From: an uncultured Eubacteriales bacterium
Lineage (GTDB): Bacteria > Actinomycetota > Coriobacteriia > Anaerosomatales > PHET01
Assembly: GCA_964607705.1 (NCBI GenBank)
Contig: CAZSLI010000002.1
Coordinates: 2,791-66,790, forward strand
Length of the DNA stretch: 64,000 nucleotides
Direction of reading: 5' to 3'
The notes under the pieces are model-generated. The model made no database searches. It saw only the letters and a program-made list of their open reading frames with translations, and was not told where the DNA came from. A program made the position numbers and the translations under genes. This document shows positions 3,198 to 62,837 of the stretch, piece by piece (the first letter of the stretch is position 1; each line of letters begins with the position of its first letter).

Positions 3198-3273
<76 letters not shown>

Positions 3274-4185: not shown

Positions 4186-4188
4186 CCC

Positions 4189-4602: not shown

Positions 4603-4717
4603 GGCTCTCCCCCTTCATAGGCGTCCACTTTGGCAAGCCCATCAAGTGTAGCGCAGACGCAGACGTGCCGATGCTTCAAAATGAGCAGCATTCCGTATCT
4701 CTCGAGGAGGAGTCACC

Positions 4718-6268: not shown

Positions 6269-6329
6269 AACACACGCCATGAGTCAACGAAACGAGGCCC
6301 CTCAAGAGAGGGACCTCGTTCTGTTTCCG

Positions 6330-6404
6330 TGGAGCTGGCGACAGGAGTCGAACCTGCAACCTACTGCTTACAAGGCAGTTGCTCTTCCATTGAGCTACGC
6401 CAGC
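6330..6404 (-). tRNA. tRNA-Thr (anticodon TGT), CCA encoded
   Basis: Minus strand: GCTGGCG-TA-GCTC..GAGC-A-ACTGC-CTTGTAA-GCAGT-AGGTT-GCAGG-TTCGACT-CCTGT-CGCCAGC-T-CCA. 75 nt. Confidence 0.9.
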
Positions 6405-10057: not shown

Positions 10058-10103
10058 GCGTCCCTCTCCCTCGGCTTCCGTGCGGCGTCACCGTTTGGCA
10101 ACG

Positions 10104-27736: not shown

Positions 27737-27813
<77 letters not shown>

Positions 27814-42651: not shown

Positions 42652-42670
42652 TATCCGGCCCCCATGGCCC

Positions 42671-43186: not shown

Positions 43187-43189
43187 GGG

Positions 43190-43801: not shown

Positions 43802-43802
43802 G

Positions 43803-46879: not shown

Positions 46880-46890
46880 GATCTCGTTCC

Positions 46891-47262
46891 TCAGCCGACC
46901 GAAGCTTGCAGGCACTTCTTGACGGTCTCGAGCACCTTCGTCGGCTGGAAAGGCTTTACGAGAAAGTCGAGCGCGCCCGCCTCGAGCGCCTCAACGATCA
47001 TCTTCTGCTGTCCCATCGCGCTCACCATAAGCACGCGGGCTGCGGGGTCTACGCGCTTGATCTCTCGAAGCGCCTCGATTCCATCGAGCTCGGGCATCGT
47101 GATGTCCATAGTCACCAGGTCCGGCCGGACCTCACCGTACTTCTCGATAGCGTCTCGGCCATTGACGGCTTCATGGATCGCGTAGCCCTCCCGGGCGAGT
47201 ATGTCTCGGATCATCATCCTCATGAACGCTGCATCATCGACGACCAGAATGGTCTTAGACAT
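46891..47262 (-). CDS. cheY: chemotaxis response regulator CheY
   Basis: The inner ATG gives MSKTILVVDDAAFMRMMI...DLVTMDITMPELDG...VSAMGQ...K, a single receiver domain of 123 aa. Confidence 0.93.
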   Translation of the reverse strand: MSKTILVVDDAAFMRMMIRDILAREGYAIHEAVNGRDAIEKYGEVRPDLVTMDITMPELDGIEALREIKRVDPAARVLMVSAMGQQKMIVEALEAGALDFLVKPFQPTKVLETVKKCLQASVG

Positions 47263-47746
47263 CCGCGGGCACCTCTTCGTCGTCGGCTCCGGGGACCGCC
47301 GAGGCATACTCGGAACGGGGAACCGCCTCATCCAGGTTGAGCAGTATCACAAGCTTGCCGTCCCGCTCGACCACACCGGAGAAGGCGCGGGCGGTCTCAG
47401 GCGCCAAGACGCCGTCGGGGACAGGGTTGACGGACTCGGGTTCGAACTCGGTGACCTCGGTAGCGGAATCCACAGCGACACCCACCGCGCCAGCAGCGCC
47501 CTCTGCGACAACGATGCGCGAGAAGGTCCCCGGCTTGAATGGGATCCCCTTGAAGCGCATGTGGAGATCGACCACCGGAATGACGCGGCCACGGAGGTTG
47601 ATCACCCCCAGCACCGAATGCGGGGCCCGGGGGACCGGCGTCGCCTCCTCGAAGCGGATGATGCTGTTGACGGCGGCGACCGGCAGGCCGTATTCCTCAT
47701 CGGCCAGATGGAAGACCACGTAGCTGTTCGCCAGAGGTTTGCTCAT
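47255..47746 (-). CDS. cheW: chemotaxis coupling protein CheW
   Basis: 163 aa. FHLADEEYGLPVAAVNSIIRF...VLGVINLRGRVIPVVDL is the CheW pattern. Confidence 0.92.
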   Translation of the reverse strand: MSKPLANSYVVFHLADEEYGLPVAAVNSIIRFEEATPVPRAPHSVLGVINLRGRVIPVVDLHMRFKGIPFKPGTFSRIVVAEGAAGAVGVAVDSATEVTEFEPESVNPVPDGVLAPETARAFSGVVERDGKLVILLNLDEAVPRSEYASAVPGADDEEVPADV

Positions 47747-47754
47747 CGCGTGCT

Positions 47755-49071
47755 CTAGTCGACCCGGAACCGGTGAACGGTCTCGTCGAGACGCTGCGCC
47801 ATGTCGGCGAGATCCTGGGCCGACGCGGTGATCTCCTGCATACAGGCCGTCTGCTCTTCGGCAGCGGCGGCGGTCTCTTCGGCGGAAGCGGCGTTCTGCT
47901 CGACCACCGCAGCGATCTCGTGCATCGCCCGGTCGACATCCGTCGTGCGTCGCGCCTGCTCGCTCATCGACTTGGCGATCTCGTCGGCCAGCTGGCTCGT
48001 GCGGGAAACGGCGTCACTGATCGCGCGGAGCGCCTTGCCGCTGCGGCCGACGACCTCGCTGCCGACCTCGACCTCGCGCGTACCGATCTCCATGTATCGC
48101 ACGGCCTTGGCTGTCTCCGCCTGAACGTCTTGGATGAGCTCTCCGATCCGCTCGGCCGCCTGCCCAGAGCCCTCGGCCAACTTGCGGACCTCCTCGGCGA
48201 CGACCGAGAACCCGCGGCCCGACTCGCCGGCACGCGCGGCCTCGATCGCTGCGTTGAGCGACAGGAGGTTGGTCTGGTCGGCGATGTTGGTGATGACGTC
48301 GACGATGCCGCCGATCTGCTCGCTTCGCTTGCCGAGGACTTCGACCGAGGATGCGAGCGTCTCGATGGCCTGCTGGACCTCGGCGATCTTCACGATCGCC
48401 TGCTCGGTCGCCTCCTCGCCAGCGCGAGCGACCTGTGCGGCCTCGAGACTCGTGGTCGCCGCCTCGGTCGCCTTTGACGCGACCTGCTCGGTTGTGGAGG
48501 TCATCAGGGCGACAGCGCGGCTGGTATCGTCGACCTTGCGCGACTGCAGCTCGGCACCATGCGCTATCTGCTGCACCGACGAAGAGATCTCGATCGTCGA
48601 TGAGTTGATCTCCTCGGAAGACGCCGAGAGTTCGGATGCGGCCGCTGACACCGAATCGGCCGAGCGTCGCACCTGCGACGCGATGCCGGAGAGCGACTCG
48701 ATGAGCAGGTTGCATTCGCGAGCAAGCTCGCCGATCTCGTCATTGCGCTGGATCCGGGCGCGTACGCGCAGATCCCCCTCGCCGGCCTGGATCATCGTGC
48801 CGCCCAGGTCGCGAAGCGGACGGAGGATCCTGTCCTTGAACTGGATGCGCCACAGCCAGGTCCCGACGGGCGCCATGAGGAACATCGCGACCGCGCCCAC
48901 CGCCATGACCGGCGCCATCTCGGCCAACGAGAGGTCGAGGAAGTAGTAAGCGAAGATCGCCGTCAGAATCAGTCCGAACAAGACCGCCGGTCCGATCGCC
49001 ACCCAGGTGAGCAGCGTAAAGATGAAGGACAGCCCGCCTCTGACGGTGCTATCCCTGTGTTCCTGCGCCAT
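47755..49071 (-). CDS. methyl-accepting chemotaxis protein (2 TM, HAMP, MA domain)
   Basis: 438 aa. HAMP ([21 protein letters not shown]) and the conserved hairpin [35 protein letters not shown]. Very short extracytoplasmic loop. Confidence 0.92.
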
Positions 49072-49121
49072 CTGGCTCGTTCCCCTCCGCGGCCCTTCCG
49101 GGCAGCTGACGTCCCCCCGGC

Positions 49122-49970
49122 CTAGTAGCGGACCGGCTTGCGATAGATACGCTCTCTGCCATCTATCGGCTCAAAGCGCTCCGCGGCTTGAGGGCTCAAC
49201 TTCTCACTGCGCCCCAAGACGAGATAGCCTCCGCGCGCCAACGCTCCCCAAAACGTTTCGAGCGCTCGCGCCTGCTGCTCTCGATCGAAGTAGATGAACA
49301 CGTTGCGGCACATGATGAGATCGATCGATCGCTGTGGCGCCGGATCGAACAGGCTCGCTTCGCGGAACCGTACGATCTTGCGTACCGACGGGTCCATCTC
49401 GAACGCTTCGCGATTAACCGGCTGGGTGAATCGTACCTGATAACTGGCCGGGATGTGGCGCAGCCGCTGGTTGTCGAAGACGCCCAGCTCGGCCCTGCGC
49501 AGCGCCTCCCGGTCGAGGTCCGTCGCCAAGACTGACATCAGGTAGCGTGACTCGTCCTTCCCAACCGCGTCGAGCAGCATCATGGCGAGCGAATAGGGCT
49601 CTTCTCCGGTAGCACACGCCGCAGACCAAAGGCGGATCGTTCGACTTCGCCCCTCGGACTTCGACTCGAGCATGGGCCGCATGACATTACGCTTGATCGA
49701 GTCCCACACGACCTGGTCGCGGAAGAACTCGGTGACGTTGATCGTCAGCGTGTCCAAGAGGCGTTCGTACTCGTTCGGATCCGACTCTAGGACATCGGCG
49801 TACTGCCTGAACGAGTGCAGGTCGAGGGCGCGCAGCCGCGTGGTGATGCGCCGCTCCACGTACGCTCGACGATACAGCGACAAGTCGATGCCGCGTGCAT
49901 CGTTGACCTTGTCGATGAGTCGGTCGAGGCTGCCGCGATAGACTCCTGAGGAACCGCCCTCTTCCACGCG
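49122..49970 (-). CDS. cheR: chemotaxis protein methyltransferase CheR
   Basis: CheR N-domain ([16 protein letters not shown]) and SAM-MTase domain ([31 protein letters not shown]). I place the start at GTG 49970 after GGAGGGGGG. The track ORF extends to 50024. Confidence 0.88.
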
Positions 49971-50025
49971 CCCCCCTCCGACAGACACAACCGACCCCGC
50001 GTGTGAAGTGCTAGATATGCGCACC

Positions 50026-50031: not shown

Positions 50032-50078
50032 AGTATGCCAGTCAGTTCGTGCATCTCGCCGAAGAAAGGCGCCGGCTG

Positions 50079-51140
50079 GTGAAGGCCCCGAGCATCACTC
50101 AGAAGGTGGTCGCCGTCATTGCCGCGGCCGTCCTGCTCCTGCTCTCAAGCGGCTTGGCCTGGGCCGCCGCCAACGACTACCGAGAACGCGCCTTCGTTCC
50201 CCAGGGAGTCTCCGTCAACGGGACAGATCTCGGCGGCATGACCGAGGCCGAGGCCCGGACCGCAATCGAGCAGGCCGTCGCCGCCCCGCTCATGCGGCCG
50301 TTGGACGTCACGGTGGACAGCAGCACGGTCTCGTTCGATCCGCAGGATGCTGTGCGAGTCGACGTGGAGTCGATGCTCGACCAGGCATACGGCGCGCGCC
50401 GAAAGGCCGCCTTCGTCGCACGCGTACGGCACGACGTGGCGCATGAGCCCCTGACGGCCGTAGTGCGCCCCCAGTACTCGGTCGATGCCACGGCCGTCCA
50501 CACCTGGCTCACGGAGGTCGCCTCCACCGTTGACCGCCGAGCGGTCAACGCCACCATCACGGTAAGCGACGGCGCCGTGAAGCTCCGGCCGTCTGGTACC
50601 GGCAGGAAGACCGCCATCGATGACGGAGTCGCCAAGATCGTCGCGGCCTTCTCCGACGAGAGCGCTCTGTCCTCCTCGGCAGAGCGCGCCGTCGTCGTAC
50701 CGGTGGCCGTTCTCAAGCCGAAGGTCACCGAGAAAGACCTCGGCAAGACCATCGTGGTCGACCTCTCCGAGCGCCGTATCCGCCTCTATGACGGAGCGAA
50801 GATCGAGAAGACGTACCCCTGTGCGATCGGCACTCCGGACCATCCCACCCCGAAGGGGCACTTCGAGATCGTCCTCAAGCGCTACCTGCCCACGTGGGTC
50901 AATCCGGCGCCCAACAGCTGGGGCAAGGACATGCCTCCCTCTATACCGCCGGGGCCGGGGAACCCGCTCGGCACCCGCGCCATCAACCTGAGCGCGTCAG
51001 GCATCCGGTTCCACGGAACGACGAATCTCGGGTCCATCGGAAGCGCCGCGAGCCACGGGTGCATGCGAATGGTTCGGGCTGACGTGGAGGACCTGTACGA
51101 GCGCGTCAAGATAGGCGACCAGGTCTACATCGTCCCCTAG
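50079..51140 (+). CDS. membrane-anchored L,D-transpeptidase (YkuD domain)
   Basis: N-terminal TM helix, a long linker domain and C-terminal YkuD (IRLYDGAKIEKTYPCAIG...HGTTN...SHGCMRM). I place the start at GTG 50079. The track ORF starts at 50049. Confidence 0.88.
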   Translation: MKAPSITQKVVAVIAAAVLLLLSSGLAWAAANDYRERAFVPQGVSVNGTDLGGMTEAEARTAIEQAVAAPLMRPLDVTVDSSTVSFDPQDAVRVDVESMLDQAYGARRKAAFVARVRHDVAHEPLTAVVRPQYSVDATAVHTWLTEVASTVDRRAVNATITVSDGAVKLRPSGTGRKTAIDDGVAKIVAAFSDESALSSSAERAVVVPVAVLKPKVTEKDLGKTIVVDLSERRIRLYDGAKIEKTYPCAIGTPDHPTPKGHFEIVLKRYLPTWVNPAPNSWGKDMPPSIPPGPGNPLGTRAINLSASGIRFHGTTNLGSIGSAASHGCMRMVRADVEDLYERVKIGDQVYIVP

Positions 51141-51194: not shown

Positions 51195-54100
51195 CTAGCG
51201 GACGTACACCGTGCGGAACGTCGAGTACGACGGCGCGTGAGCGGTGTCCGCGTGGTATGCCCGTATGATCCACTTGCCCGTGTAGGGCAGCGACACGTAG
51301 CCGTAGTAGCGGCTGTAGCTGCTGTAGTTCTTCACCTTCACGCTGATCGTCTTGCGCAACTTGGGCTTGCCGCTCTCATAGCGGTAGCACTGGAGCTTGA
51401 CTGCGTAGGTGCCCGAGGAGTGGCGCGGCTTCAGGTTGCCGTACGTGCTGAAGCGCACGTTGCGTCCGGTTCTTGACGGCGCGTACGGCGTCGAGAGATA
51501 GACCTTCGGAGTCACTGCGAACACCTGCGTCGCTGCCGCGGCCTCGAAATCGGCGTCCGCATCGGTCGTCAGGCGGTACGAGGTCTTCACGGTTGGCTTG
51601 ACCGTGAAAGACACCTTGCCGGCTGCATCGGTCTGGCGGCTGTCGACTCTCCGCCAGCTCCCGGACAGGTACTCAAGGAAGACGGTCTTGCCCGGCAACG
51701 CTCCACTCTCCACGGCGCTCCACGAACCGCTGATCGCCGCGCTGCCGCCGTACGCGATGACGCTCGCCGAAGAAGCGCCCGAGAGCTGCGTCGACTCCTT
51801 GGGGTCTACCGAGAGACGTGTGGCACGAGCGGACTCGTTCCCCGCACCGTCGTACGCCACGAACTCCACCTTCACGGGGCGATAGCCCGACCACGACACC
51901 TCGTCGGGCGTCCAACTGGTCTCCCAGCTGCCGTCCGGGTTCACGGTCACCGGGAGTCTGATGGGCTCAGGCTGCCAACCGGCGCCGCTCCAGTACATTG
52001 CGTCCCGGGTGATCGCTATGCTTGCCGCGTCGATTCCGGACCGTGAGTCTGATGCTGTCCCGGAGAGCGTGACGGTTGCCTCGCGCGTCAGCGGGAACGG
52101 CACGTTCGCTTGAGCGATAGTGGCGCTGGGCGCCGAGGTGTCGAGCACTATCGAGTCGGAGGCCGTGGCCCCCACGGTATGGCTTGCGTCAGACGAGAAC
52201 CGGAACGTCACCGTCCGCGTACCCTCGCCTGCGCCTAGTGACAGCGTAGCCGCCGAGGACCCGCCGTAAGGCATCCACTCGCTGGGCGCACCGCCGTCAA
52301 CCTGATAGCTCACCGAAGTCGCTCCGACCGCGGACACCGTCGCCGTCACCGTCTGCGAGCCGGTGTACCGATCTCCGCCGTTGAGAGCGATCTGCGCTGC
52401 GATCGGCACCGCCGAGACGACGCCGGGCGTGGTGACTGAGACGAGTCCGTAGCCGTCGGTCGCATGCGCCTCGAGGGTGACCATCTCGCCGGGGATGATC
52501 TGATCGGGCGTCAGCGTCCAATCGTAGTACCAGCTGGCCCCGCCCGTGACAGGGAGCCAGACCTCGGCCCCGTTGTTCCAGCCGCTCCCGTTCCAACAAC
52601 GACCGGAACTCCGCCTTATCAGCACCTCGACGCCTTGAACCGTGCCTCCCGTGTCTGCGGCTGTACCCGAGATACGTGTGGTGTTTGCCGACAGCCTGAA
52701 TCCCGCCGCAGGTGAACTGATCGCGACGCTGGGGACCGACGTGTGCAGGACGATGTCGTCACTGGCCGAGGCCTCTACGCTGGCCCCTCCGGTGGACGAG
52801 AAGCGGAACCAGACGCGCTTCACGCCGTCACCGGCAGGCAGCGTGATACCGGTCGCCGAGGCGTACGGCTCCCACGCCGAGAAGGCGCTGCCGTCGAAGC
52901 TCATCTGCATGTGGGTGGGCGTGCCGGTGGTCGCCACGGACGCGATGATGCCGCGCGTCGTGGTGTAGGCCGCACCGGCTTGCAGTGAGACGGCGGCGGC
53001 GATGCCGACGCTCGAGTCCCTCTGGGCACTCGTCCCTTGCAGCCCCACGCCATCGGTCGCCCTGGCCGTCACCGAGACGATGTAGCCCGCGAGCTGATCC
53101 GTCGGCGGGACCGCCCAGTCGTACGACCAGCCGATGCCGGTCATCGGTAGCCAGAAGTCACCGGGCGTCCAGGCGAGGCCATTCCAACTACGCCCGTCCG
53201 AGCGGCGGATGCGCAGCTCCGTGGACGATATGATGCCGTCGACATCTGACGACGTACCGGATACGTGGACGAGCGGTGTGTTGAGCGAGAAGCCGGAGGC
53301 GGGAGTGGCCAACGCCACTTCGGGAATGCTGGTATGCAGAAGGATCGAGTCCGAGGCCGTAGCCTCGACACTGGCCCCGCCGGTGGACGAGAGCTCGAAA
53401 ATGACCGTCTTGGTGCCGTCGCCCGACGGGAGTGACACGGCGGCACTCGGAGCGTAGTCCTGCCAGCCCGTGAAGGTTGCTCCGCTGTCCACGCTCCACC
53501 GCATCTTGTTGGGAGTGCCCGTGGTGGCGAGGGATGCGGTGACTCCGGTGCTCGTCGTGTACGCCGCCCCGCCATTCAACGAGACGGCCGCCGCCACCGA
53601 GACGCTCGATGAGACCGTCGCCGCCGAGCCGACGAGTCCAACCATGTCTGTCGCGCGCGCCGAGATGGAGATGATCTGACCGGCGGCGAGTTGTCCTGCT
53701 GAAGGAGCCCAGCGGTACGACCAGTTGCCCGTTCCGGTCGCCGGGATCCAGGATGTTGCACTGCTCCATCCCGAGCCGGTCCAGGTGTAGCCGTCCGACC
53801 GTGTGATGAGCACTTCGACCGAGGTCAGGCTGCCTCCAGCGTCTGCCGCCGTCCCCGTGATGGTCACCGGCACACTCGTGAGCGAGAACCCGTTCGCGGG
53901 CTGTGCGATCGCGACGGAAGGCACGCTCGTGTGCAGCAGGATGGAGTCGCTTGCCGTCGCATCAGTCGTACCGTCGCCTGCCGATGAGAACTCGAACGTG
54001 ACGGTCTTCACGCCATCACCCGCGGTCAAAGTGACCGCCTTGCTTGCCGAGTACGGCTCCCAAGCGTTGTAGCCCGTGCCGTTGTTCCAGCGCATGCGAT

Positions 54101-56081
54101 TCGGCGTGCCGGTCGTCGCGATCGACGCGACAACGGTAGTTCCGCTGGCATACGTGTCGCCCGTGTTGAGCGCCATCGAGGCCACGACGGGCACGCGTGA
54201 CGTCACGCCCGCACTCGAGCCGGTGAGCCCGGCCGCATCGACCGCGCGTGCGGTGAGCGTGACCGCCCGGCCGGAAGCACGAACCGACGCATCCGGAGTC
54301 CAAGCGAGCTGCCAAGTCGCATAACCATCGCTCGTCGTCACCGGCAGCCAGGTCTCCGTGGCAGTCCAAGCGGTGCCGTTCCACGTCAGGCCGTCAGCCC
54401 GCTGGACGCGAACCGACACACTTGACACAGCACCTACCGCGTCGAATGCCGTGCCGGCTACGGTGACCGGCCCGTTCAGCGAGAATGCCGTGCTGGGACT
54501 GGTGAGCGCGACCGACGGCGCCTGGGTGTCGAGCGTGATGCCGTCGGATGCGGTTGCGGCGATGGTGGCTCCGCCGTCCTTGGAGAACTGGAAGGTTACG
54601 AGCTTAGCGCCATCTCCCGGCGGGAGGACCACAGAGGCGGCGGTGGAGTACGTCGACCAGCCGGTCCATGACGCTCCCCCGTCGACCGACCAGCGCATGA
54701 CGCTCGCCCCGGGCGCCGAGATGCTCGCCTGGACGGTGCCTTGCGTGGTCGTGGCGGCACCGGCGGCGAGCGCCACCGAGGCGACCATCGGGACCTGCGA
54801 CGAGACGGTCCCGCTGACGGTCGTCAGGGGCGTACCGTCGGTGGCGCGCGAGGTGACGGACACGATCTGACCCGAAGCCAAGTCGGCGGCTGAGGGAGTC
54901 CATGAGTAGCTCCAGGTGCTCCAGTCGCCTGCCGCCCGGGGCTGCACGGCGAGCCAGGTATCGGCACTCGTCCATACACCAGGCGTGCCGGTGAAGCACT
55001 GGCCGTCAGCGCGGCGGATCCGCACTCCTACCGACCGTACTCCCGTGCCTATGTCCGACGCGGTGCCCGTGATGAGAACCGGGGATGACGAGAGCACGAA
55101 GTCCGCAGATGGAGAGGCCAAAGAGATGCCCGGCGGGTTCGAGGGGACACTGACTGTCACCTCGGACGAATGTCCGTAGGCGCCGTTGGCGTCCCACGTC
55201 TGCACTGAATAGCGGTACTGCCGGCCCTCGCCCCTGATCGGCTGGGACAGTGTCAGGTCGGCGGCGGCGCTTGAGACCGACGGCGTGATGTCGTTCCATG
55301 CGCTGCTTCCGCCGTCCGCCCACCATGCCTTATAGAGGATGGGACGGGTCTCGAGCGCTGTGGTCGTGGTTGACGAGTACGGCCGCTTCCATGACAGCTG
55401 CACCGCTGAAGTGCCCGCAACGGACGTGAACTCGCGCGGCGGCCCATACTTCCAGCCGAAGAACTCGACGTCATCGATCGTGGGACCCAGACCGTCAGCG
55501 TCCATGGGCTTGTTCTCGAAACGTATGCGCGCGTAGCCCGCGCGTCGCGAAAGGCCGTATGGCGAGCTGCCCAAGTCGTAGCTCACCTTGCGCCAGCTTG
55601 CCGACGTGCCAAGTCGCGCAGGAGCGGAGAACTGGCTGCCTGCGACGCCCCAGTTCGCATAGAAGTCGTCTGCGGCGCCCATGCTCGGATTGATGAAGTA
55701 GTAGCTCAGGTCGCCGGTGTAGTAGTCGGCCATCTGAGGAAGATCGAACCGGATCTCGCTGCTGGCGTAGTAGGAGTACCCGTAAGTCGGATAGGTGCTG
55801 GCTAGGAGTGTGTCGCTTCCGCTGCACCACAGGCCGGTGGACCCCCCGTACACGCTGTTCTTCTCGCTAGTGATGGGACCCCAGGTGACGGCTTCGCTGC
55901 CATCGGCCCATGGCTGGGAGAACATCGTGTACTTGGGAGTGGTTCCGGGCTCGAATCCCTCACGACCGAGCAGCGAGACGCCGGACGTCGCAGGCCCGGC
56001 GAATGCGGGCGCAGGGATACACAGCGCCGCCGCGAGAGCGACCACCAGTAACGTTCTGAGAGAACGTGCCGGACGCTGCAC
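51195..56081 (-). CDS. 1628-aa secreted repetitive cell-surface protein (lectin-like N-domain, FN3, five and a half tandem double-Ig units, two C-terminal Ig-like domains)
   Basis: Signal peptide MQRPARSLRTLLVVALAAALCIPAPAFA. FN3-like aa 216-312. Repeats are delimited by ASD(S/G/D)I.L(H/D)T..P(S/E)VA. Thr/Ser/Gly/Ala-rich with no Cys-rich or haem motifs. Confidence 0.85.
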   Translation of the reverse strand: MQRPARSLRTLLVVALAAALCIPAPAFAGPATSGVSLLGREGFEPGTTPKYTMFSQPWADGSEAVTWGPITSEKNSVYGGSTGLWCSGSDTLLASTYPTYGYSYYASSEIRFDLPQMADYYTGDLSYYFINPSMGAADDFYANWGVAGSQFSAPARLGTSASWRKVSYDLGSSPYGLSRRAGYARIRFENKPMDADGLGPTIDDVEFFGWKYGPPREFTSVAGTSAVQLSWKRPYSSTTTTALETRPILYKAWWADGGSSAWNDITPSVSSAAADLTLSQPIRGEGRQYRYSVQTWDANGAYGHSSEVTVSVPSNPPGISLASPSADFVLSSSPVLITGTASDIGTGVRSVGVRIRRADGQCFTGTPGVWTSADTWLAVQPRAAGDWSTWSYSWTPSAADLASGQIVSVTSRATDGTPLTTVSGTVSSQVPMVASVALAAGAATTTQGTVQASISAPGASVMRWSVDGGASWTGWSTYSTAASVVLPPGDGAKLVTFQFSKDGGATIAATASDGITLDTQAPSVALTSPSTAFSLNGPVTVAGTAFDAVGAVSSVSVRVQRADGLTWNGTAWTATETWLPVTTSDGYATWQLAWTPDASVRASGRAVTLTARAVDAAGLTGSSAGVTSRVPVVASMALNTGDTYASGTTVVASIATTGTPNRMRWNNGTGYNAWEPYSASKAVTLTAGDGVKTVTFEFSSAGDGTTDATASDSILLHTSVPSVAIAQPANGFSLTSVPVTITGTAADAGGSLTSVEVLITRSDGYTWTGSGWSSATSWIPATGTGNWSYRWAPSAGQLAAGQIISISARATDMVGLVGSAATVSSSVSVAAAVSLNGGAAYTTSTGVTASLATTGTPNKMRWSVDSGATFTGWQDYAPSAAVSLPSGDGTKTVIFELSSTGGASVEATASDSILLHTSIPEVALATPASGFSLNTPLVHVSGTSSDVDGIISSTELRIRRSDGRSWNGLAWTPGDFWLPMTGIGWSYDWAVPPTDQLAGYIVSVTARATDGVGLQGTSAQRDSSVGIAAAVSLQAGAAYTTTRGIIASVATTGTPTHMQMSFDGSAFSAWEPYASATGITLPAGDGVKRVWFRFSSTGGASVEASASDDIVLHTSVPSVAISSPAAGFRLSANTTRISGTAADTGGTVQGVEVLIRRSSGRCWNGSGWNNGAEVWLPVTGGASWYYDWTLTPDQIIPGEMVTLEAHATDGYGLVSVTTPGVVSAVPIAAQIALNGGDRYTGSQTVTATVSAVGATSVSYQVDGGAPSEWMPYGGSSAATLSLGAGEGTRTVTFRFSSDASHTVGATASDSIVLDTSAPSATIAQANVPFPLTREATVTLSGTASDSRSGIDAASIAITRDAMYWSGAGWQPEPIRLPVTVNPDGSWETSWTPDEVSWSGYRPVKVEFVAYDGAGNESARATRLSVDPKESTQLSGASSASVIAYGGSAAISGSWSAVESGALPGKTVFLEYLSGSWRRVDSRQTDAAGKVSFTVKPTVKTSYRLTTDADADFEAAAATQVFAVTPKVYLSTPYAPSRTGRNVRFSTYGNLKPRHSSGTYAVKLQCYRYESGKPKLRKTISVKVKNYSSYSRYYGYVSLPYTGKWIIRAYHADTAHAPSYSTFRTVYVR
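52134..55136 (-). repeat. five tandem ~199-codon (~0.6 kb) coding repeats, with a partial sixth copy reaching about 51807
   Basis: Unit boundaries are at aa 316, 521, 720, 919 and 1117, and the last full unit ends at aa 1316. Each unit has two parts. The first is an Ig-like domain with ..(I/V)(T/S)GTA.D..G.(V/L)..V.V.I.R.DG..W.G..W. The second is a ..(L/I)N(G/T)G..YT....V.......G.P..M.......(F/Y)..W..Y......L..GDG.K.V.F.FS domain. Confidence 0.8.
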
Positions 56082-56095: not shown

Positions 56096-56896
56096 TTAGC
56101 GCGCTGCGGGCACCTTCGACGCGATGTCGACTCCTAGCGCCTTGACGCTTGCCGGCTTAGTACCGGGCCGAACGGTGACCACCACTTCGAACGCGTACCG
56201 GCCGCGCGCGAATGCCACCGCCGCTACCCCTGCACCATTCGTGCCGAAGTAGCCTGAATCCACTATTCCTACACGCACGGGCTGAGCATCGACCGAATAC
56301 GGCCGCTTGACCGCGTTCTTCACGTAGGCCTGCGCCTTCGCTTCGGATCCCATGTCGTGTGCATAGACAGCAGCACGCGTCACGGTCGCGCGCGCCGCTC
56401 GGTCCTTCAAAGACGGCTCGAACGTGACCAGGGCATCAGAGCCCTGTACGGTCACACGGCCCTTGCTCCACGTCCCGTAAGACGAAGGAAGCAGAGTCCC
56501 GAGGTCCTTGACCGCCTTGGCGTACGGTCCGGCCGGCGGTGCCGCTGGTTCTTCGGCTGGTTGACCGCCCGAGACAGGGGTCTCGGTCGCGGGGGGCGCC
56601 TGCGCCGTATCGATCACACGCTTCGCAGTAGCGTTGTTCGGGTCCGCCTTGAGCGCCTTGTTCGCGAGCGCAAGGGCCGTCGCCGTCTGGTTCTGTGAGA
56701 GCGCCGCATCCGCGCTCGACGCAAGCTTCTCGGCCTCGAGGGTACCCTGCGTCACCGGTGCCGGTTCCTGCTGCTTCTTCGGCGCCGACAACGCTGACAT
56801 GCCGAAGATGACGGCCGCCAGACCCACAACCGCAGCACCCGCGATCGCGAGTTGCTTCCAGGTGAACTTAGGGCTGGCGTTCGGGTCCTTGGCCAT
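56096..56896 (-). CDS. single-pass membrane-anchored protein of unknown function (266 aa)
   Basis: ATG after GAGGGAG. One TM helix (LAIAGAAVVGLAAVIFGMSAL), a Pro/Ala/Glu linker and an extracytoplasmic globular domain of about 130 aa. It lies 21 nt after the 14-haem gene and 14 nt before the giant gene. Confidence 0.6.
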   Translation of the reverse strand: MAKDPNASPKFTWKQLAIAGAAVVGLAAVIFGMSALSAPKKQQEPAPVTQGTLEAEKLASSADAALSQNQTATALALANKALKADPNNATAKRVIDTAQAPPATETPVSGGQPAEEPAAPPAGPYAKAVKDLGTLLPSSYGTWSKGRVTVQGSDALVTFEPSLKDRAARATVTRAAVYAHDMGSEAKAQAYVKNAVKRPYSVDAQPVRVGIVDSGYFGTNGAGVAAVAFARGRYAFEVVVTVRPGTKPASVKALGVDIASKVPAAR

Positions 56897-56917: not shown

Positions 56918-59917
56918 TCAGAAGACGTACGGGTAGTCTGCAGAGCTCATGTGACAGCCGCTCACGCACGAGCCACCGATCGGCTGACCGGAGCCCACCG
57001 TCTCGGTCCATTTCACCTCATCGCGCAGCAGATGCTTCTGCCGCGGGTTCCCGTGGCTCTCGTGGCACGAGCCGCACGCCATCCCGAGAGAGGCGTGATA
57101 CGAGTGCAGTCGGCTGGGTGTATCGGCGGTGTTGTAGAAGCCACTCTGCTTCACGCCATGCACCTCGCCGAGACCACTGACGTAGACGGCCGGCTCGTGG
57201 CACGTGACGCAGAGGCCGCTCGTGGAGTCGGCAGCGATAGCCACCTGCGGCTTCTTCAACAGCGGGAAGTTGGTCGAACGGTGAGGTCCTGCCGGCGTGG
57301 AGGCAGACGACCGGCCATGGCACGACGAACAGGTGAGCGTGTCGCCCGGCTGCGCGCCGTTGACGAGGACCTCTCCGAGCGAGTTGTCCGCGCGGGCCTC
57401 GCCCTCGATGGGATGGAACGACGCACCCAGCGTGTTGATCTCGGAGGCGATGCTGCGGACGTCGGCCGAAGCCCAACGGGAGTGGCAACTGAAGCAGACC
57501 TCGTACTCGGCGGTCGCGGTCTCGCGCTTCGAGGCGAGGCTCACCGTGCGCGAATCGATGTTCGTGGCTATGACTCCCTGAGCGCCGATGAGCGCGCCTG
57601 GCATCGAACTGGTGTCCGCGGATGCCGACTTGGCGAGGTGCGAGTTGTGACAGTCGGAGCACTCGACGTGCCGCGTGTCCATCGCGGACTCGGTCGACTC
57701 GTGTGCCCCGGGCGCCTGGCCAACCGTGTGCCGCGAGGGCCCGATCGCGCCTAGGTCCACTGCCACGACATGGGCGTTGCGCCCCGCCGCCTCGACACCG
57801 CCGACCTTGAGGTCGAACGAGCCGGTGACGTCTTGGCCGTCCACATCGGTCTGCAGCACCCTGAGCGACGGCGGCACGGCGTCCGCGGCGTGAGTGAAGG
57901 ATCCGGCGAGCGCCACGGTGACATCGCTCCGGCCGTCGCCGTTCGCATCGCCGAGCGCCAACCCGGAAGGCCTGGCGGCCGCAGGGGTGGCCGTGTCGAC
58001 CATCGAGACGAGCGGCGAGTCGGCTGACGGCATGATGCGCACGCCGCCGTCACCCGCCTCGTCAGTGAAGGTGACCGCGATCTCTCGGCCTGCCGTGCCT
58101 ACGGCCGGCGTCGCGCCGGGGAAGATGTCGCCCACGGCCAGCGCGCTCGCCTGCGCACCGGCAGCGAGCGGGCCGCCACCGGAGAGGTACTCTGTTCCAT
58201 TCGCCCTGTAGAGGGCGACCACGTCGGTCAGCTCGCCCGCGTAGGCCACTGCGATCTCTTTGGTGCTCGCCACGTCATCGATATCGGCGACTGCGGCGGC
58301 GACCGGCTGGCTCAGCGCGGCAACGTCCACATCGATCCGTAAACCGCCCAAGCCGTCGTCTGAGAGCACGTAGAGCCGGTCAGGCGCCGTGGTCGTGACC
58401 ACGATCTCCTCGCCCGGGCCGTCGGTCAGGTCGCCCAGGGCTATCGCCGTCGGGGTGCCCGTCACCGTCGCCGAGGACTTCGGCAGCATGGTGTGCCCGA
58501 GGACATTGGCGGTGATCACCTTGCCGGCGGCCGTCGTGTAGACGGTCTCGGGTGCGTCCATCAGGTCGAAGTAGACGTCGCCCACAGCAAGCGCGGTCGC
58601 CCGCTCCCCGCCGGGAAGCGAGAAGACGGTCTCGCTCACTATCCGGGACGCGTCGCGCTGTAGCATCGCCAGCTTCGCCGAGGACGTGCTGGCCACGAGC
58701 GCCTCGCCGGTGCTATCCCCGTCCACGTCTCCGGCGGCGATCGGGCCGATGGCGCCCAGGCCGCTCATGTCAGGGATCCGCGGGCCGCTGGGTATCGCCG
58801 CGGCTGTGGACTCGCGCGCGTAGAGCGCCACGCGGCCGTAGGCGGCGACCGATGCCTCGAAAGAGGCGAGCACCTCGAGACCGGGAGTCGTGGGACTGTA
58901 CTTCAGCGAGGCGAAGTCCGTCTTGGCCGGACCAGCCGCTTGGTGGCAACGGTCGCAAAGTGCGCGGCCCGAGGCGTCGAGGAGGTTGGGCAGCGGATTC
59001 CCTGTGCCATCCGAAGTACCCATCGCGTTGTGGCACGCCTGGCACTCGCCCACCGTGCGCGTGGCTCCGACACTCGCCCACTCCCCGCCCACCGGAACCG
59101 TGGATGCCGAGGAGGCGTGCGCGGAAGACGCGTACGCCGAGGAACCCGGCCAGACGCCGACACCGACACGGTGACAGCCTGCACACAGTGTCCGGTCGTC
59201 ACCCTTGACGGCAGCAGTCGCGGGCGCGGAAGGCGTGACCAGTGATGAGCGTATGTTCGCCTCGTAGGGTGAGCCATGCGGCTCGTGACATGCCGAGCAC
59301 ACGATCTTGGATGCCGTCGGCGCCTCGATGGCGGCATGAGGCGTCTTCGCCCAGATCGCCGCACCGGGGAAGCGGCTCGCGGAGCGCACCCAGTGGCATG
59401 ACGTGCAGAACTGGTCGCCCTGGTAGACGAGACTGCCGGTGACGGTTACCGAGCGGAGCAGGTCGGGGTACGGGGTCCCCGTCACAACGCGCGCCGAGCC
59501 GTGAGCGTCGTGGCAGGTACCGCATTGCTTGGACGCAGGGCCGAATGCCGATGGGCTCGGCGCGAGCAGATGCGCAGAGCTGGCCTCGAAGGACGACTGC
59601 ACGTCCGTGCCGGATCCCAGGGCGTCGACGCCGTGGCAGGTGTAGCACAACTCGACGTCTGCTTCGCCAGGGACCGCGAGCAAGGCACTCGACGTCGTGC
59701 CGGCTGAGTTCGTCCAGGTGCCCCTGCTCGGGGCGGAATGGGTCCTGTGGCACATCGCACAGACGTCGGTGTCGGCGGCGGCTGCAACGTGCGGCGGGAG
59801 AGTCGCTGTGGCCGAGGCAGGGGCTGCGGCAGCAGCATCGGGGTACGCGCATGCCAAGGCAACCGTCAGTGCGACGGCCGCCACGGCAAGTAGCCCGATG
59901 GTGTTGCGCAACCTCAC
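56918..59917 (-). CDS. 999-aa secreted multihaem cytochrome (8 + 6 haem motifs) interrupted by an FG-GAP/VCBS-like beta-propeller
   Basis: Signal peptide. 13 CxxCH motifs plus a C-terminal CVSGCH. The central part (aa ~345-735, nt 57713-58885) carries six or seven repeats of the type (A/G)(L/V)A(V/L)GD(V/L/A)(D/N/T)(G/D).....E(I/A)(V/A)V. Confidence 0.88.
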   Translation of the reverse strand: MRLRNTIGLLAVAAVALTVALACAYPDAAAAAPASATATLPPHVAAAADTDVCAMCHRTHSAPSRGTWTNSAGTTSSALLAVPGEADVELCYTCHGVDALGSGTDVQSSFEASSAHLLAPSPSAFGPASKQCGTCHDAHGSARVVTGTPYPDLLRSVTVTGSLVYQGDQFCTSCHWVRSASRFPGAAIWAKTPHAAIEAPTASKIVCSACHEPHGSPYEANIRSSLVTPSAPATAAVKGDDRTLCAGCHRVGVGVWPGSSAYASSAHASSASTVPVGGEWASVGATRTVGECQACHNAMGTSDGTGNPLPNLLDASGRALCDRCHQAAGPAKTDFASLKYSPTTPGLEVLASFEASVAAYGRVALYARESTAAAIPSGPRIPDMSGLGAIGPIAAGDVDGDSTGEALVASTSSAKLAMLQRDASRIVSETVFSLPGGERATALAVGDVYFDLMDAPETVYTTAAGKVITANVLGHTMLPKSSATVTGTPTAIALGDLTDGPGEEIVVTTTAPDRLYVLSDDGLGGLRIDVDVAALSQPVAAAVADIDDVASTKEIAVAYAGELTDVVALYRANGTEYLSGGGPLAAGAQASALAVGDIFPGATPAVGTAGREIAVTFTDEAGDGGVRIMPSADSPLVSMVDTATPAAARPSGLALGDANGDGRSDVTVALAGSFTHAADAVPPSLRVLQTDVDGQDVTGSFDLKVGGVEAAGRNAHVVAVDLGAIGPSRHTVGQAPGAHESTESAMDTRHVECSDCHNSHLAKSASADTSSMPGALIGAQGVIATNIDSRTVSLASKRETATAEYEVCFSCHSRWASADVRSIASEINTLGASFHPIEGEARADNSLGEVLVNGAQPGDTLTCSSCHGRSSASTPAGPHRSTNFPLLKKPQVAIAADSTSGLCVTCHEPAVYVSGLGEVHGVKQSGFYNTADTPSRLHSYHASLGMACGSCHESHGNPRQKHLLRDEVKWTETVGSGQPIGGSCVSGCHMSSADYPYVF

Positions 59918-61314
59918 TCTGCGGCGACCCCTTTCTCAGCGGCGAGCGCAGCAGACACGACGGCGGGGTCGGGCCTCTCGGCCCCTTCCCTTGCGGCGAC
60001 GTCTATCGCGACCGACAGAGCAGCGGCGGCGACGTCGAGCCGAGTGCCAGCGGGCACGGCGGCGAGAAGCTCATGGGTCCACACGGGGGGCTCAGCGTCT
60101 ACCGACGCCGAAGCGATCCACTCCTCGACGATATCGCGGTCGAAGACGGCGTCGCGCGCGGAAACGGTCTCAAGCTCGTCGTAGCGCCATGAGACCCGCC
60201 GCGCCGCAGCGAAGGCCTCAGCGACCTCCGGAGCGATGTCCGGCCGAAGGATGAGCATGAGACCGCCGAAGTCCTTCAGTGCCCAACGCAGAGAGGTCAG
60301 AGTGTTGACGATCTTGAGTCGCAGATCCGCGGGCACCGTCGGCCAGATCTCGAAACGGTCGAACATGACGGCGACCGCACGTATGCGCGGCGAAGCGAAC
60401 TTCACGAGCGCCACGAGTGTCTTGCTCGGCGCCTTCGAGACCTTGAGCTCCTCGGCCATCGACGATCGGCCCTGGGCCTGATAGGCCCTGACACCTCGTG
60501 CGACGACGGGTGAGAGATTCTTCTTGAGATAGGCGACAAGGTAGTCGCCGAGCAGCGACTCCACGTCCACAGGCTGAGCGTCGTCCGCAGCCGGGAGCGC
60601 AGTCTCGTCCACGTCGCCGAGCGGCGTGACGAAAGCGGCGGCCATCGGGTCGTCCGGGGAGTCCTCGGAGGCCTTCAGCGACTCCTCGCCCTCGGCCGGA
60701 TCGGTCTCCAGGCGATCGATACGCGCGGTGGACACGCGCATGAGCGCCTCGAGGTCCTCGGCTCCCTCGCGTGACGCAAGCGGCTCGCCGAAGATGCGCC
60801 GGGCGTAACCAGCAGGGTCCTCGGCCACGTCGGTTGCGACCGACGCGACGTCGAAGCCGGCCTCTGTGAGCGCCACCCACTCGGGCAGTGCCTCATCGGG
60901 AGTCGCAAGAGCGGCCTGGAGCCACGTGCCGATGGTCAGGTCCGGCTGACGCGCAGCCACCCACTCGGCTGCGGAATGCAGGACCGCCCGGACGCGCCCG
61001 ATGCGCATCATGTCCAGTGGCACGTAGAGCTGCATGATGCCGGGGACCGCCTCATCGGTGGCGAGCGCCCGCAGCGCAGGGGCAAGCGCCTGCACCGCGT
61101 AGATGGCGGGCAGGTCGCCCTTTTCCACGACGGTCGGACGGTGATCGGGGTCGGACGCGAGCACGTTCACGGCCGAAAGTAGCCGGTACGACGCGGCGAC
61201 GACCGACAGGCGCATACCATCGGAGTCGGTGGTGTCTTCTTGAGGGAGAGACAGCGGGTTGCCGAGCAGCCCAAGCGTGTCGAATGCGGGCGTCACAGCC
61301 TCGCGAGGTTCCAT
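59914..61314 (-). CDS. unknown 466-aa protein without signal peptide, translationally coupled to the 14-haem cytochrome gene
   Basis: The ATG at 61314 lies 8 nt after AAGGAG. The track ORF starts 3 codons earlier at a GTG. The stop TGA overlaps the GTG start of the next gene (GTGA). The protein is acidic and Ala/Leu-rich with no Walker A motif. Confidence 0.6.
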   Translation of the reverse strand: MEPREAVTPAFDTLGLLGNPLSLPQEDTTDSDGMRLSVVAASYRLLSAVNVLASDPDHRPTVVEKGDLPAIYAVQALAPALRALATDEAVPGIMQLYVPLDMMRIGRVRAVLHSAAEWVAARQPDLTIGTWLQAALATPDEALPEWVALTEAGFDVASVATDVAEDPAGYARRIFGEPLASREGAEDLEALMRVSTARIDRLETDPAEGEESLKASEDSPDDPMAAAFVTPLGDVDETALPAADDAQPVDVESLLGDYLVAYLKKNLSPVVARGVRAYQAQGRSSMAEELKVSKAPSKTLVALVKFASPRIRAVAVMFDRFEIWPTVPADLRLKIVNTLTSLRWALKDFGGLMLILRPDIAPEVAEAFAAARRVSWRYDELETVSARDAVFDRDIVEEWIASASVDAEPPVWTHELLAAVPAGTRLDVAAAALSVAIDVAAREGAERPDPAVVSAALAAEKGVAAE

Positions 61315-61460
61315 GCAGTGCACTCCTTACCGGTGGGGCGCGCGAGACCTGCCGGGGTCCCTTGGAGGACGCGTCCTCTGTCCAGCTCGAATTATAGCGG
61401 GATATGGGGTTTTGCACCTGCTGTTTGAGAACTCCGTGCCATCTGGAACGGGTTCACGAA

Positions 61461-61494
61461 GAAGGCCCCGACCGGTTTCCCGATCGGGGCCTTC
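61461..61494 (-). terminator. hairpin after the OmcS-like cytochrome gene
   Basis: GAAGGCCCCGA-(12 nt)-TCGGGGCCTTC, an 11-bp stem 34 nt after the stop at 61528. Weak U tract (TTCGTG) on the minus strand. Confidence 0.5.
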
Positions 61495-61527: not shown

Positions 61528-62817
61528 CTACTTGTTGTGGCAGCGCTCGCACACGCCGCGGTTGTCCGCGCGGAGCAGGGCGCTCGAAACGTTCGGGTTC
61601 ACGCCGGCCGGAGCAACCGTCGTAGGCTCGACCGTCCACGTGACGGAGGCCGTCGGGTTGTTCTTGAGGCGAGCGTTGGCCCATCCGGTCATCACGGCAG
61701 ACGAGCCGTGTGCACGGTGGCAGGTCAGGCAGCCCATGTAGTCGGTGAGCAGCCAGTTGCCGCTGCCGGTCGCACCCTTGGTCTGCACGGTCTTCTCCAG
61801 CGGAAGCACGGTGCTGGTGACGGCGTTGGTGCCAAAACCGTTGATGGTGTTGGCGCTAGCCGGCGTGATGTCGACCGGGTGGCGGTGACGGCCACGGTTG
61901 CCGATGACCTCGGTCGCGCCCGAGACGGACAGCTGACCGCTGCCGTCGCGAGTGAGCGTACCGTTGGACTCGTAGGCACCGTAGTTGTAGTTCGAGCTGG
62001 TCTCGTTGTAAGCCTCGTGGCACGCGGAGCACCAGGTCGACATGGAGCGGAAGCCCTCGCCCTGAGAGTAAGTGGCGTTGCCGCCGAACAGATACTCAGG
62101 CGTGGTGTAGTTCGGTCGATACGAAGCCATCTGCGCCGCACCCGGCTGATGCTTCAGCCAGCCGCCGACCGCGGTGGTCCCCACGGCAGAGACAGGGTAG
62201 CCCTGCTCAGACGAGAAGACGAACGGCTGCGGAACGTCGGCCGCCGTGTAACCGCCGACCGTGTGGTTGTTCACACGATCCTTGAGAAGGCGGTAGTTGG
62301 ACGAGCCGTGAACGTCGTGGCAGCTGGTGCAGGTGAGATCCGTACCCACGGGTGCCGACGAGCCGGCGCCCCACATCGGGTCGGTGACAGCACCCTTGCC
62401 CATGTCGTGCATGGACGACATGCCCGAGAACGCGCCGCCGTTGAGCGTGGCGTCCAGGGTCGAGTTCGTCTGGTAGAGGATGCCTCCACCGAGCGCGACA
62501 TTCTTCGCGCCGGAAGGACCGCCGTCGAAGATGCCTTCCTCGACGTTGGTCGACGCACCAGGAGCCATGGCACCGTGGCACGCGAGGCAGAACTCCTCCA
62601 TCGTGCTGGCCGACGAGACGAGCAAGGCGCTGTTCTGGCCGCCTGCGCCGTCAGTCCACGTCAGATCCGAGAAGGAAGTGTGAGCGCGGTGACAGCCAGC
62701 GCACGCATCAGTATCGAGCGCGTAGCCGCCGTGCGGGCCGAAGTTTGCAAAGGCGGTGCCGGTCATGGCCAACAGGGCCACGGCTGCGATCGCCAGGATG
62801 ATAAATGCTCTCTTCAC
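61528..62817 (-). CDS. secreted hexahaem c-type cytochrome, OmcS-like
   Basis: 429 aa. Signal peptide ...GTAFA/NFGPHGG. Six CxxCH motifs at Cys39, 77, 163, 263, 363 and 423. Their contexts resemble Geobacter OmcS (see findings). GTG start 8 nt after AAGGGGG, 20 nt downstream of the hydrogenase gene. Confidence 0.85.
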   Translation of the reverse strand: MKRAFIILAIAAVALLAMTGTAFANFGPHGGYALDTDACAGCHRAHTSFSDLTWTDGAGGQNSALLVSSASTMEEFCLACHGAMAPGASTNVEEGIFDGGPSGAKNVALGGGILYQTNSTLDATLNGGAFSGMSSMHDMGKGAVTDPMWGAGSSAPVGTDLTCTSCHDVHGSSNYRLLKDRVNNHTVGGYTAADVPQPFVFSSEQGYPVSAVGTTAVGGWLKHQPGAAQMASYRPNYTTPEYLFGGNATYSQGEGFRSMSTWCSACHEAYNETSSNYNYGAYESNGTLTRDGSGQLSVSGATEVIGNRGRHRHPVDITPASANTINGFGTNAVTSTVLPLEKTVQTKGATGSGNWLLTDYMGCLTCHRAHGSSAVMTGWANARLKNNPTASVTWTVEPTTVAPAGVNPNVSSALLRADNRGVCERCHNK

Positions 62818-62837
62818 TCAGTTCACCCCCTTATCGG

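Follow-up and report, generated by a model that had tools for sequence, protein, structure and literature searches.

The 64,000-nucleotide stretch analysed here (the window; positions 2,791 to 66,790 of contig CAZSLI010000002.1, from an uncultured bacterium placed in the Actinomycetota, class Coriobacteriia, order Anaerosomatales) harbors near its end a gene for a secreted hexahaem c-type cytochrome related to OmcS of Geobacter sulfurreducens. The gene lies directly behind that for the large subunit of a [NiFe] hydrogenase (HydL). It is followed by a strong RNA hairpin and by genes for a soluble protein of no known family (orf469), a second, larger multihaem cytochrome, a membrane-anchored protein and a large surface protein (Table 1). 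The spacer between hydL and the cytochrome gene is 20 nt long (62818-62837), reads CCGATAAGGGGGTGAACTGA on the coding strand and contains the ribosome-binding site AAGGGGGTGA; the first-pass annotation of this sequence had described the 20-nt distance and a ribosome-binding site.

Table 1. Features of the cytochrome locus, in window coordinates; all lie on the reverse strand and are listed from upstream to downstream.
Feature	Position	Strand	Remarks
[NiFe]-hydrogenase large subunit (HydL), C-terminal ~386 codons	62838..64000	(-)	cut by window end; PF00374, 1.1e-36
Ribosome-binding site AAGGGGGTGA	62823..62832	(-)	read from sequence, in the hydL-cytochrome spacer
OmcS-family hexahaem c-type cytochrome gene	61528..62817	(-)	429 aa, GTG start, stop included
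Predicted Sec signal peptide, residues 1-24	62746..62817	(-)	hydrophobic segment, residues 5-23
Haem 1 CAGCH, residues 39-43	62689..62703	(-)	invariant His46 (counterpart of OmcS His16) next
Haem 2 CLACH, residues 77-81	62575..62589	(-)	
Haem 3 CTSCH, residues 163-167	62317..62331	(-)	then DVH (His170); Paired_CXXCH_1, 9e-16
Haem 4 CSACH, residues 263-267	62017..62031	(-)	
Haem 5 CLTCH, residues 363-367	61717..61731	(-)	then RAH (His370)
Haem 6 CERCH, residues 423-427	61537..61551	(-)	two residues short of the C-terminus, like OmcS CNKCHAKD
Strong RNA hairpin	61461..61494	(-)	15-bp GC-rich stem, GAAA loop; begins 33 nt after the cytochrome stop
orf469, soluble protein of 469 aa, conserved but without a known family	59914..61323	(-)	stop overlaps start of the 999-aa cytochrome gene
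999-aa secreted multihaem cytochrome	56918..59917	(-)	13 CxxCH and 1 CxxxCH, central FG-GAP propeller region; kept in both cluster types
266-aa single-pass membrane-anchored protein (family F4)	56096..56896	(-)	kept in both cluster types
1628-aa secreted surface protein, bacterial Ig-like (Big_7) domains	51195..56081	(-)	in many related loci, a protein with related N-terminal region at the same position

The hexahaem cytochrome and its relation to OmcS

The cytochrome had been annotated at first pass as a secreted 429-residue protein with exactly six CxxCH motifs, and this was confirmed from the open reading frame (ORF) and from the alignment of its homologues. The first cysteines of the motifs CAGCH, CLACH, CTSCH, CSACH, CLTCH and CERCH are at positions 39, 77, 163, 263, 363 and 423, respectively. 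The amino-terminus, MKRAFIILAIAAVALLAMTGTAFA/NFGPHGG, was read as a Sec signal peptide; the predicted cleavage (AFA/NF) would make His29 residue five of the mature protein, and Ala22, Ala24 and Asn25 were found to be invariant among 41 homologues. The same amino-terminal layout is present in the OmcS family (AFA/FHSGG). A protein search returned more than 1000 database relatives, the closest being 72% identical. Those with named sources came mainly from metagenome-assembled genomes (MAGs) of Actinobacteria, Coriobacteriia or Anaerosomatales, and the record of one public relative already bears the name 'c-type cytochrome OmcS'. Together with the at least 413 genome loci described below, these relatives identify the cytochrome gene as real and conserved.

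A family profile built from 41 relatives of the cytochrome (A1) matched OmcS (6ef8/6nef) in the PDB with an E-value of 1.2e-10, the profile positions 38-422 being aligned with chain residues 8-406 and all six haem motifs being in register; the profile matched no multihaem cytochrome in the PDB except OmcS. The OmcS sequence was rebuilt from the printed PDB alignment, its first seven residues being confirmed by the OmcS-family consensus, and BLASTP of the cytochrome against it gave 24% identity end to end (E 1e-10). Profile-profile alignment of A1 with a 30-sequence OmcS-family alignment (A2) using hhalign gave a probability of 99.6% (E 1.8e-23). The OmcS-like identity proposed by the first-pass annotation was thus borne out by significant matches in both BLASTP and profile searches, and each OmcS string quoted in it agrees with the real OmcS sequence in the PDB alignment or with the OmcS-family consensus. 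Single-sequence phmmer against the PDB did not reach OmcS at E ≤ 10. Pfam and NCBIfam scans of the cytochrome returned generic multihaem matches (e.g., Paired_CXXCH_1) and no match to an OmcS-specific model, and the Pfam match to Cytochrom_c3_2 was a short local motif match only. In a neighbour-joining tree, a long branch parts the actinobacterial cytochromes from the Geobacter OmcS family. These comparisons support placing the cytochrome, by homology, in the OmcS superfamily as a genuine, though remote, member.

Twelve histidines and 12 cysteines were invariant in 61 actinobacterial homologues; the 41 sequences of A1 contain exactly 12 invariant histidines, and the OmcS family (A2) likewise has 12 conserved ones. 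All 12 were paired one-to-one by hhalign, i.e., H29 with H2, H43 with H13, H46 with H16, H81 with H51, H137 with H110, H167 with H144, H170 with H147, H267 with H243, H313 with H257, H367 with H332, H370 with H335, and H427 with H406 (cytochrome first; OmcS in mature numbering, the signal peptide being taken as 25 residues). In a plain MAFFT alignment with OmcS, 10 of the 12 histidines and all 12 cysteines coincide; H137 and H313, which lie in loops, were displaced and were paired with OmcS histidines only by the profile-profile alignment. This one-to-one pairing, reproduced for ten residues by MAFFT, upholds both the homology to OmcS and the conservation of the proximal and distal ligands, for which the first-pass annotation had suggested an alignment. 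With six proximal and six distal conserved histidines, the protein is predicted to be a bis-histidine hexahaem cytochrome. The histidine three residues after the first haem motif had been placed at the position of OmcS His16, and the invariant His46 is indeed aligned with H16, which we take to be the inter-subunit ligand of OmcS that binds haem 5 of the neighbouring subunit.

In its overall plan the cytochrome resembles G. sulfurreducens OmcS (GSU2504; PDB 6EF8/6NEF). The precursors are of similar length (429 aa, against 434 aa in the OmcS-family representative P0121), both have a Sec signal peptide with the first distal histidine within five residues of the mature amino-terminus, and the six CxxCH motifs occur in the same order and at similar spacing, with haem 6 at the extreme carboxy-terminus and a counterpart for each of the 12 histidines. 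The two differ in sequence, as the low identity indicates, and in host, since the present one is a Gram-positive-type actinobacterium without an outer membrane. They differ also in genetic context, the gene being located here behind an exported hydrogenase (in a sister clade, a formate dehydrogenase) and not in an omcS-omcT context. OmcS forms filaments; for the present cytochrome this is only conceivable.

Linkage to exported hydrogenases and formate dehydrogenases

The genomic distribution of the cytochrome gene was evaluated by a scan with one genome per species, which yielded at least 413 loci. Of these, 78, mostly from MAGs of Coriobacteriia and other Actinomycetota, were kept for comparison; their genes were called crudely (ORFs picked by third-position GC content) and then clustered into families. 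The cytochrome gene was found directly after the genes for the hydrogenase subunits HydS and HydL in 30 of the 78 loci, in addition to the window, in the order hydS-hydL-cyt and in most of these species-level genomes with a gap of 16-37 nt after hydL. Since the cytochromes of the 30 loci share only 38-70% identity and the HydL proteins 34-57%, the linkage has survived long divergence. In another 35 loci, the cytochrome gene directly follows genes for a formate dehydrogenase (Fdh), namely a selenocysteine-containing FdhA exported by the twin-arginine translocation (Tat) pathway and FdhB, and is the final gene of the unit (e.g., L053 5563-11122, L038 5635-11113). FdhA is a molybdopterin subunit with a TAT_signal match and an in-frame TGA in the context ...ARI-U-HSSTV..., its best model being formate dehydrogenase-N alpha (5e-108), and the 4Fe-4S subunit FdhB is encoded next. 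The hydrogenase-linked and Fdh-linked cytochromes formed two separate clades in the neighbour-joining tree. An exported soluble oxidoreductase thus precedes the cytochrome in 65 of 76 evaluable genes; the remaining loci are in other contexts (11/78) or cut (2/78). Chance adjacency was rejected in view of this recurrence in 30 and 35 genomes.

The contexts without an adjacent hydrogenase or formate dehydrogenase include a cytochrome gene behind that of a giant 1900-aa protein with 10 CxxCH motifs (L025, L027 and L031, genes ending at ~9912-10603), tandem duplicate cytochrome genes behind an NHL propeller gene (L041, L067 and L078), and a single copy behind an NHL propeller gene (L033).

As HydL is truncated in the window, HydS, the Tat signal and the question of a membrane anchor were assessed in the orthologous loci. 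HydS is 450-481 aa long there, with a twin-arginine signal (RRQF; ITRRQFV) and without a carboxy-terminal membrane helix, and HydL is 659-718 aa long, the full-length orthologue of L002 having 718 aa (L002 6357-9983). The best PDB relatives of the latter (2.6e-55) were [NiFeSe] enzymes from the periplasm of Desulfovibrio and Desulfomicrobium. The window HydL matched the NCBIfam model NiFeSe_hydrog at 1.3e-33, under the cut-off; the best NCBIfam scores were 304.6 bits for NiFeSe_hydrog (cut-off 600) and 139.5 bits for H2_NiFeSe_small (cut-off 470). Both subunits carry large insertions, and cysteine takes the place of selenocysteine. These sub-cut-off scores, together with the insertions and the cysteine, mark a divergent hydrogenase lineage, and the enzyme is, as far as sequence comparison can place it, a divergent relative of the group 1a-like periplasmic [NiFe]/[NiFeSe] enzymes rather than a clear member of the family. 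No cytochrome b gene was found in the related hydrogenase/cytochrome clusters. The first-pass annotation had assigned the cytochrome to the slot normally held by a cytochrome c3 or cytochrome b partner; the recurring spacing, the Tat-exported and anchorless HydS, the missing cytochrome b and the periplasmic [NiFeSe] enzymes as nearest solved hydrogenases all agree with this. Periplasmic [NiFeSe] hydrogenases reduce the tetrahaem cytochrome c3. It was also observed that HydL ends in ...SFDPCIACAVH, without the carboxy-terminal extension, which is the part that maturation endopeptidases remove; a protease gene was not found in the hydrogenase clusters.

The hairpin that the first-pass annotation had noted 3' of the cytochrome gene was recovered by folding, the 217-nt region that contains it giving -90 kcal/mol (z = -3.55). 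A consensus terminator and promoter scan returned nothing relevant, the hairpin being missed because no T-run follows it. Comparable hairpins (-29 to -49 kcal/mol in 50 nt) are present in nearly all loci of both types, mostly 20-55 nt past the cytochrome stop; the hairpin is a probable terminator or attenuator without a U-tract. The proposal that the cytochrome is the last gene of the hydrogenase operon is made plausible by the conservation of the hairpin, but the conserved cluster continues downstream of it. A TATAAT hexamer, read from the sequence, precedes orf469 in the window.

Published expression data are available for a related unit. In Coriobacteriaceae sp. EMTCatB1 from a methane-producing biocathode, a formate dehydrogenase 'with' a multihaem cytochrome (1c0408, 1c0407, 1c0406) was among the top 10% of transcripts (PMC7943316). 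Under closed circuit, the mean transcripts per million (TPM) were 1253 for FdhA, 1242 for FdhB, 2716 for the multihaem cytochrome and 135 for the next gene, a 20-fold fall past the cytochrome gene. In the two controls, the cytochrome had 900 and 437 TPM and FdhA 194 and 194; the replicates spread widely (345 vs. 5087 TPM for the cytochrome) (PMC7943316). Mapped by gene order and strand only, 1c0406 is most probably the Fdh-linked paralogue at L038, whose cytochrome is 40% identical to that of the window and has the same surrounding cluster. Given this mapping and the fall in TPM, we infer that the hairpin attenuates or terminates transcription after the cytochrome. The EMTCatB1 unit differs from that of the window in having a formate dehydrogenase as the partner, and its authors, who proposed direct electron uptake for the organism, did not see the likeness to OmcS (PMC7943316).

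The surrounding gene cluster

Hydrogenase-linked and Fdh-linked loci share a common frame. Upstream of the enzyme genes are multihaem cytochromes (~7-20 haem motifs), a membrane-anchored tetratricopeptide repeat (TPR) protein and a membrane-anchored NHL propeller; after the enzyme and the OmcS-like cytochrome come a single-pass protein, a ~1000-aa FG-GAP multihaem cytochrome and large surface or cell-wall-binding proteins. Residues 42-107 of the 999-aa cytochrome of the window form a two-haem module that is 47% identical (E 9e-14) to the amino-terminal module of the OmcS-like protein and includes counterparts of His29 and His46. By this resemblance it could be a docking module. The NHL propeller (family F1, e.g., L001 4625-6136) is always encoded two or three genes upstream of the actinobacterial OmcS-like gene, and the gene directly upstream of Geobacter omcS (L079 6809-7756) encodes a 315-aa protein with weak NHL/six-bladed-propeller matches. 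The propeller may be an accessory factor common to Geobacter omcS and the actinobacterial clusters.

The gene after the cytochrome differs between the two types, being orf469 in hydrogenase-linked loci and a 12-13-helix membrane protein in Fdh-linked ones. The latter (family F9, e.g., L053 11098-12648) belongs to no known family; it could serve as a link to the membrane or might instead resemble a glycosyltransferase. orf469 is always next after the hydrogenase-linked cytochrome and is present in ~27 loci. Pfam, NCBIfam and PDB-profile searches with it gave no match. Its AlphaFold2 (AF2) model has a predicted local distance difference test (pLDDT) score of 90.8, and Foldseek showed only a weak AAA+ likeness (ORC/Cdc6, TnsC, BrxC; E 0.06, TM ~0.2). 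The protein has a degenerate-looking P-loop region (RPIVVEK) and a GLxxNPF motif at the amino-terminus. A 9.8-kb contig of a Logan assembly of run DRR182649 (L081) carries an orf469 identical (100%) to that of the window, followed by the same genes; hence, the organism of the window was sequenced in that sample.

Farther away, the window contains a complete chemosensory cluster (CheR, methyl-accepting chemotaxis protein, CheW, CheB, CheA, CheC and CheD), ending in a GAF-GGDEF diguanylate cyclase (41158-50024, reverse strand) and adjoined by an L,D-transpeptidase gene (50049-51140, forward strand). Several related loci likewise have, next to their cytochrome island, genes for CheR, the methyl-accepting chemotaxis protein, CheB, the transpeptidase and a probable response regulator, the last judged by its N-terminal sequence alone. 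The window also contains six tRNA genes, for Trp, Met, Thr(GGT), Tyr, Thr(TGT) and Pro, at 1343-6404 and 27737-27813 (-), four of them within 1343-3394.

Proposed role of the cytochrome

The cytochrome is probably, though by no means certainly, a redox partner dedicated to the exported hydrogenase on the outside of the cytoplasmic membrane and tied to a wall-associated multihaem network. It would do for this enzyme what tetrahaem cytochrome c3 does in Desulfovibrio for hydrogenases and formate dehydrogenases of the periplasm, and would be made together with the Tat-exported [NiFe] hydrogenase, which is free of a membrane anchor. We infer that electrons from H2 oxidation would pass from the distal Fe-S cluster of HydS to the six-haem chain of the cytochrome. 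From there they would pass to the multihaem network, i.e., the 999-aa FG-GAP cytochrome and the 8- to 20-haem cytochromes encoded upstream in the orthologous loci, and onward to quinone-linked or extracellular acceptors. The chain could also run backward to make H2, and conditions may decide the direction. In culture, Anaerosomatales use Fe(III) or sulfur compounds to oxidise H2 and formate (PMC9686372); EMTCatB1 seems to take up electrons from the cathode (PMC7943316).

The c3 systems of Desulfovibrio have the same basic arrangement of a soluble enzyme of two subunits, exported by the Tat pathway and lacking a cytochrome b anchor, and a multihaem c-type cytochrome, the proposed acceptor in the present case. 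In that genus, HynAB and HysAB work with type I c3, and FdhABC3 has its c3 gene in the same operon; the periplasmic [NiFeSe] enzymes of Desulfovibrio are also the closest solved relatives of HydL. The systems differ in that c3 is a 13-kDa tetrahaem protein, whereas the partner here is a 45-kDa hexahaem protein with homology to OmcS, outside the c3 family. Moreover, the hydrogenase subunits have large insertions and score below the family cut-offs, and the host lacks a periplasm enclosed by an outer membrane. No sequence relation to the Thermincola OcwA-type cytochromes was detected with the A1 profile among the multihaem cytochromes of the PDB, and to our knowledge such surface cytochromes are not encoded as the final gene of an enzyme operon. 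Secreted multihaem cytochromes of Gram-positive metal reducers, OcwA among them, have been proposed to carry electrons across or beyond the thick wall (as cited in PMC9686372 and PMC7943316).

Several observations weigh against a dedicated enzyme partner of OmcS type. OmcS-type filaments have insulated haems, which do not offer an obvious docking surface for an enzyme. If H2 oxidation and the final acceptor are both outside the membrane, energy conservation would need an additional quinone or transmembrane step. The AF2 model of the cytochrome (41 sequences) had a pLDDT of 58 and a predicted template modelling (pTM) score of 0.55, haem-free models of loop-rich proteins being unreliable, and Foldseek of this poor model against the PDB gave no match at E ≤ 0.001. 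The 11 of 78 loci with a cytochrome gene and no adjacent enzyme indicate that the family is not strictly enzyme-bound.

Formation of an OmcS-like polymer by the cytochrome is possible, though it is not what we would expect. Somewhat less likely still is that long-range conduction through or beyond the thick wall is its main job, as a filament assembled head-to-tail with His46 on haem 5 of the neighbouring subunit, the enzymes being docked or merely co-regulated. The full set of OmcS histidines is invariant, the His16 counterpart included, and the mature amino-terminus is in register with that of OmcS. An anchor motif is absent from the protein, which, like OmcS, ends shortly (two residues) past haem 6. 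In a Gram-positive-type cell, an exported hydrogenase without an anchor must be held by something, and a wall-spanning polymer would do so; the NHL propeller gene is kept in the clusters, as a weak NHL-like propeller gene is found directly upstream of Geobacter omcS. A weaker pointer is that Parvivirga hydrogeniphila, a cultured relative, makes thin appendages only with insoluble ferrihydrite (PMC9686372), but these appendages are not linked to the present protein. On the other side, the identity to OmcS is low, the operon position is like that of a stoichiometric enzyme subunit, and the AF2 monomer model is unusable. A conserved His46 would be equally expected if it ligated haem 5 within one chain, as a monomer and a domain-swapped polymer are identical in sequence. 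The boldest combination of these ideas, i.e., that Coriobacteriia-type actinobacteria build an OmcS-fold polymer through the cell wall with the exported hydrogenase and the selenocysteine formate dehydrogenase plugged onto it ('enzymes on a wire'), is unlikely; were it true, the OmcS-type amino-terminal two-haem module of the 999-aa FG-GAP cytochrome might let that protein dock to the polymer or cap it.

It is similarly doubtful that the system serves mainly for electron uptake. In this reading a cathode, Fe(0), reduced minerals or a partner cell would donate electrons, which surface cytochromes and the OmcS-like protein would relay to the exported hydrogenase (or Fdh) for the production of H2 (or formate) on the cell surface. 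The [NiFeSe] type, to which the closest solved hydrogenases belong, is known for good H2 production. There is no clear benefit to the cell of H2 made outside the membrane. The paralogous Fdh-cytochrome genes of EMTCatB1 were higher in the closed-circuit cathodic condition than in two controls, but the replicates vary widely, and the data concern the Fdh-linked paralogue and not the hydrogenase-linked gene (PMC7943316). Cultured Anaerosomatales consume H2 and formate (PMC9686372).

That the cytochrome works independently of the hydrogenase, e.g., as a terminal reductase of metals or as a haem enzyme with a catalytic function, and adjoins it only because electron-transfer genes are packed into one island, is very improbable: multihaem cytochromes and surface proteins do make up a large island here, and the 11 loci lacking an adjacent enzyme fit such a view, but most of the 30 hydrogenase-linked genomes have the cytochrome gene at the same short distance (16-37 nt) directly behind that of the catalytic subunit, a separate clade occupies exactly the same position behind another exported enzyme in 35 genomes, the conserved hairpin closes the unit after the cytochrome, and a catalytic haem enzyme was rejected because each of the six haems has two invariant histidines, leaving no obvious open coordination site for catalysis.

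Neither OmcS homologues in Coriobacteriia nor a gene link between a hydrogenase and OmcS was found described in the searchable literature, which does not cover all journals, and a RefSeq survey of OmcS homologues makes no mention of Actinobacteria (PMC10954620). Parts of the arrangement had been noticed earlier: in the EMTCatB1 study, formate dehydrogenase and a multihaem cytochrome were treated as a group (PMC7943316), and a cytochrome cluster containing a molybdopterin enzyme was noted for the Anaerosomatales (PMC9686372). In P. hydrogeniphila, cluster MCL4079376-90 comprises multihaem cytochromes together with a formate dehydrogenase (PMC9686372) and may be of the Fdh-linked type. The present comparison suggests that the OmcS fold has been recruited as an enzyme partner in Gram-positive-type bacteria. 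The role of OmcS-type cytochromes and the source of their electrons are disputed; one 2024 paper proposes the periplasmic PpcA-E as the 'charging' route, and another argues that physiological evidence for OmcS-type filament function is lacking. An OmcS relative with a genetically fixed partner, an exported hydrogenase or, in the sister clade, a formate dehydrogenase, offers a concrete and testable input or output for such a haem chain.

The subsurface and electromethanogenic biocathodes are habitats in which OPB41/Anaerosomatales and their relatives are common (PMC9686372, PMC7943316), and the OmcS family is seen here to reach the Gram-positive-type Actinomycetota, in which extracellular electron transfer is poorly understood. 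The conservation of the arrangement in dozens of related species suggests that the cytochrome carries electrons between the hydrogenase and the cell surface. If the coupling of enzyme and cytochrome is true, it would be a natural design for wiring H2- or formate-converting catalysts to solid surfaces, with a bearing on biocorrosion, electrosynthesis and interspecies electron transfer. Were the enzymes in fact mounted on an OmcS-fold wire, the cell could move electrons both ways, from H2 or formate to minerals, electrodes or partner cells and back, and the nanowire fold of OmcS would be common to Gram-negative and Gram-positive cell plans and have a known enzyme as its input.

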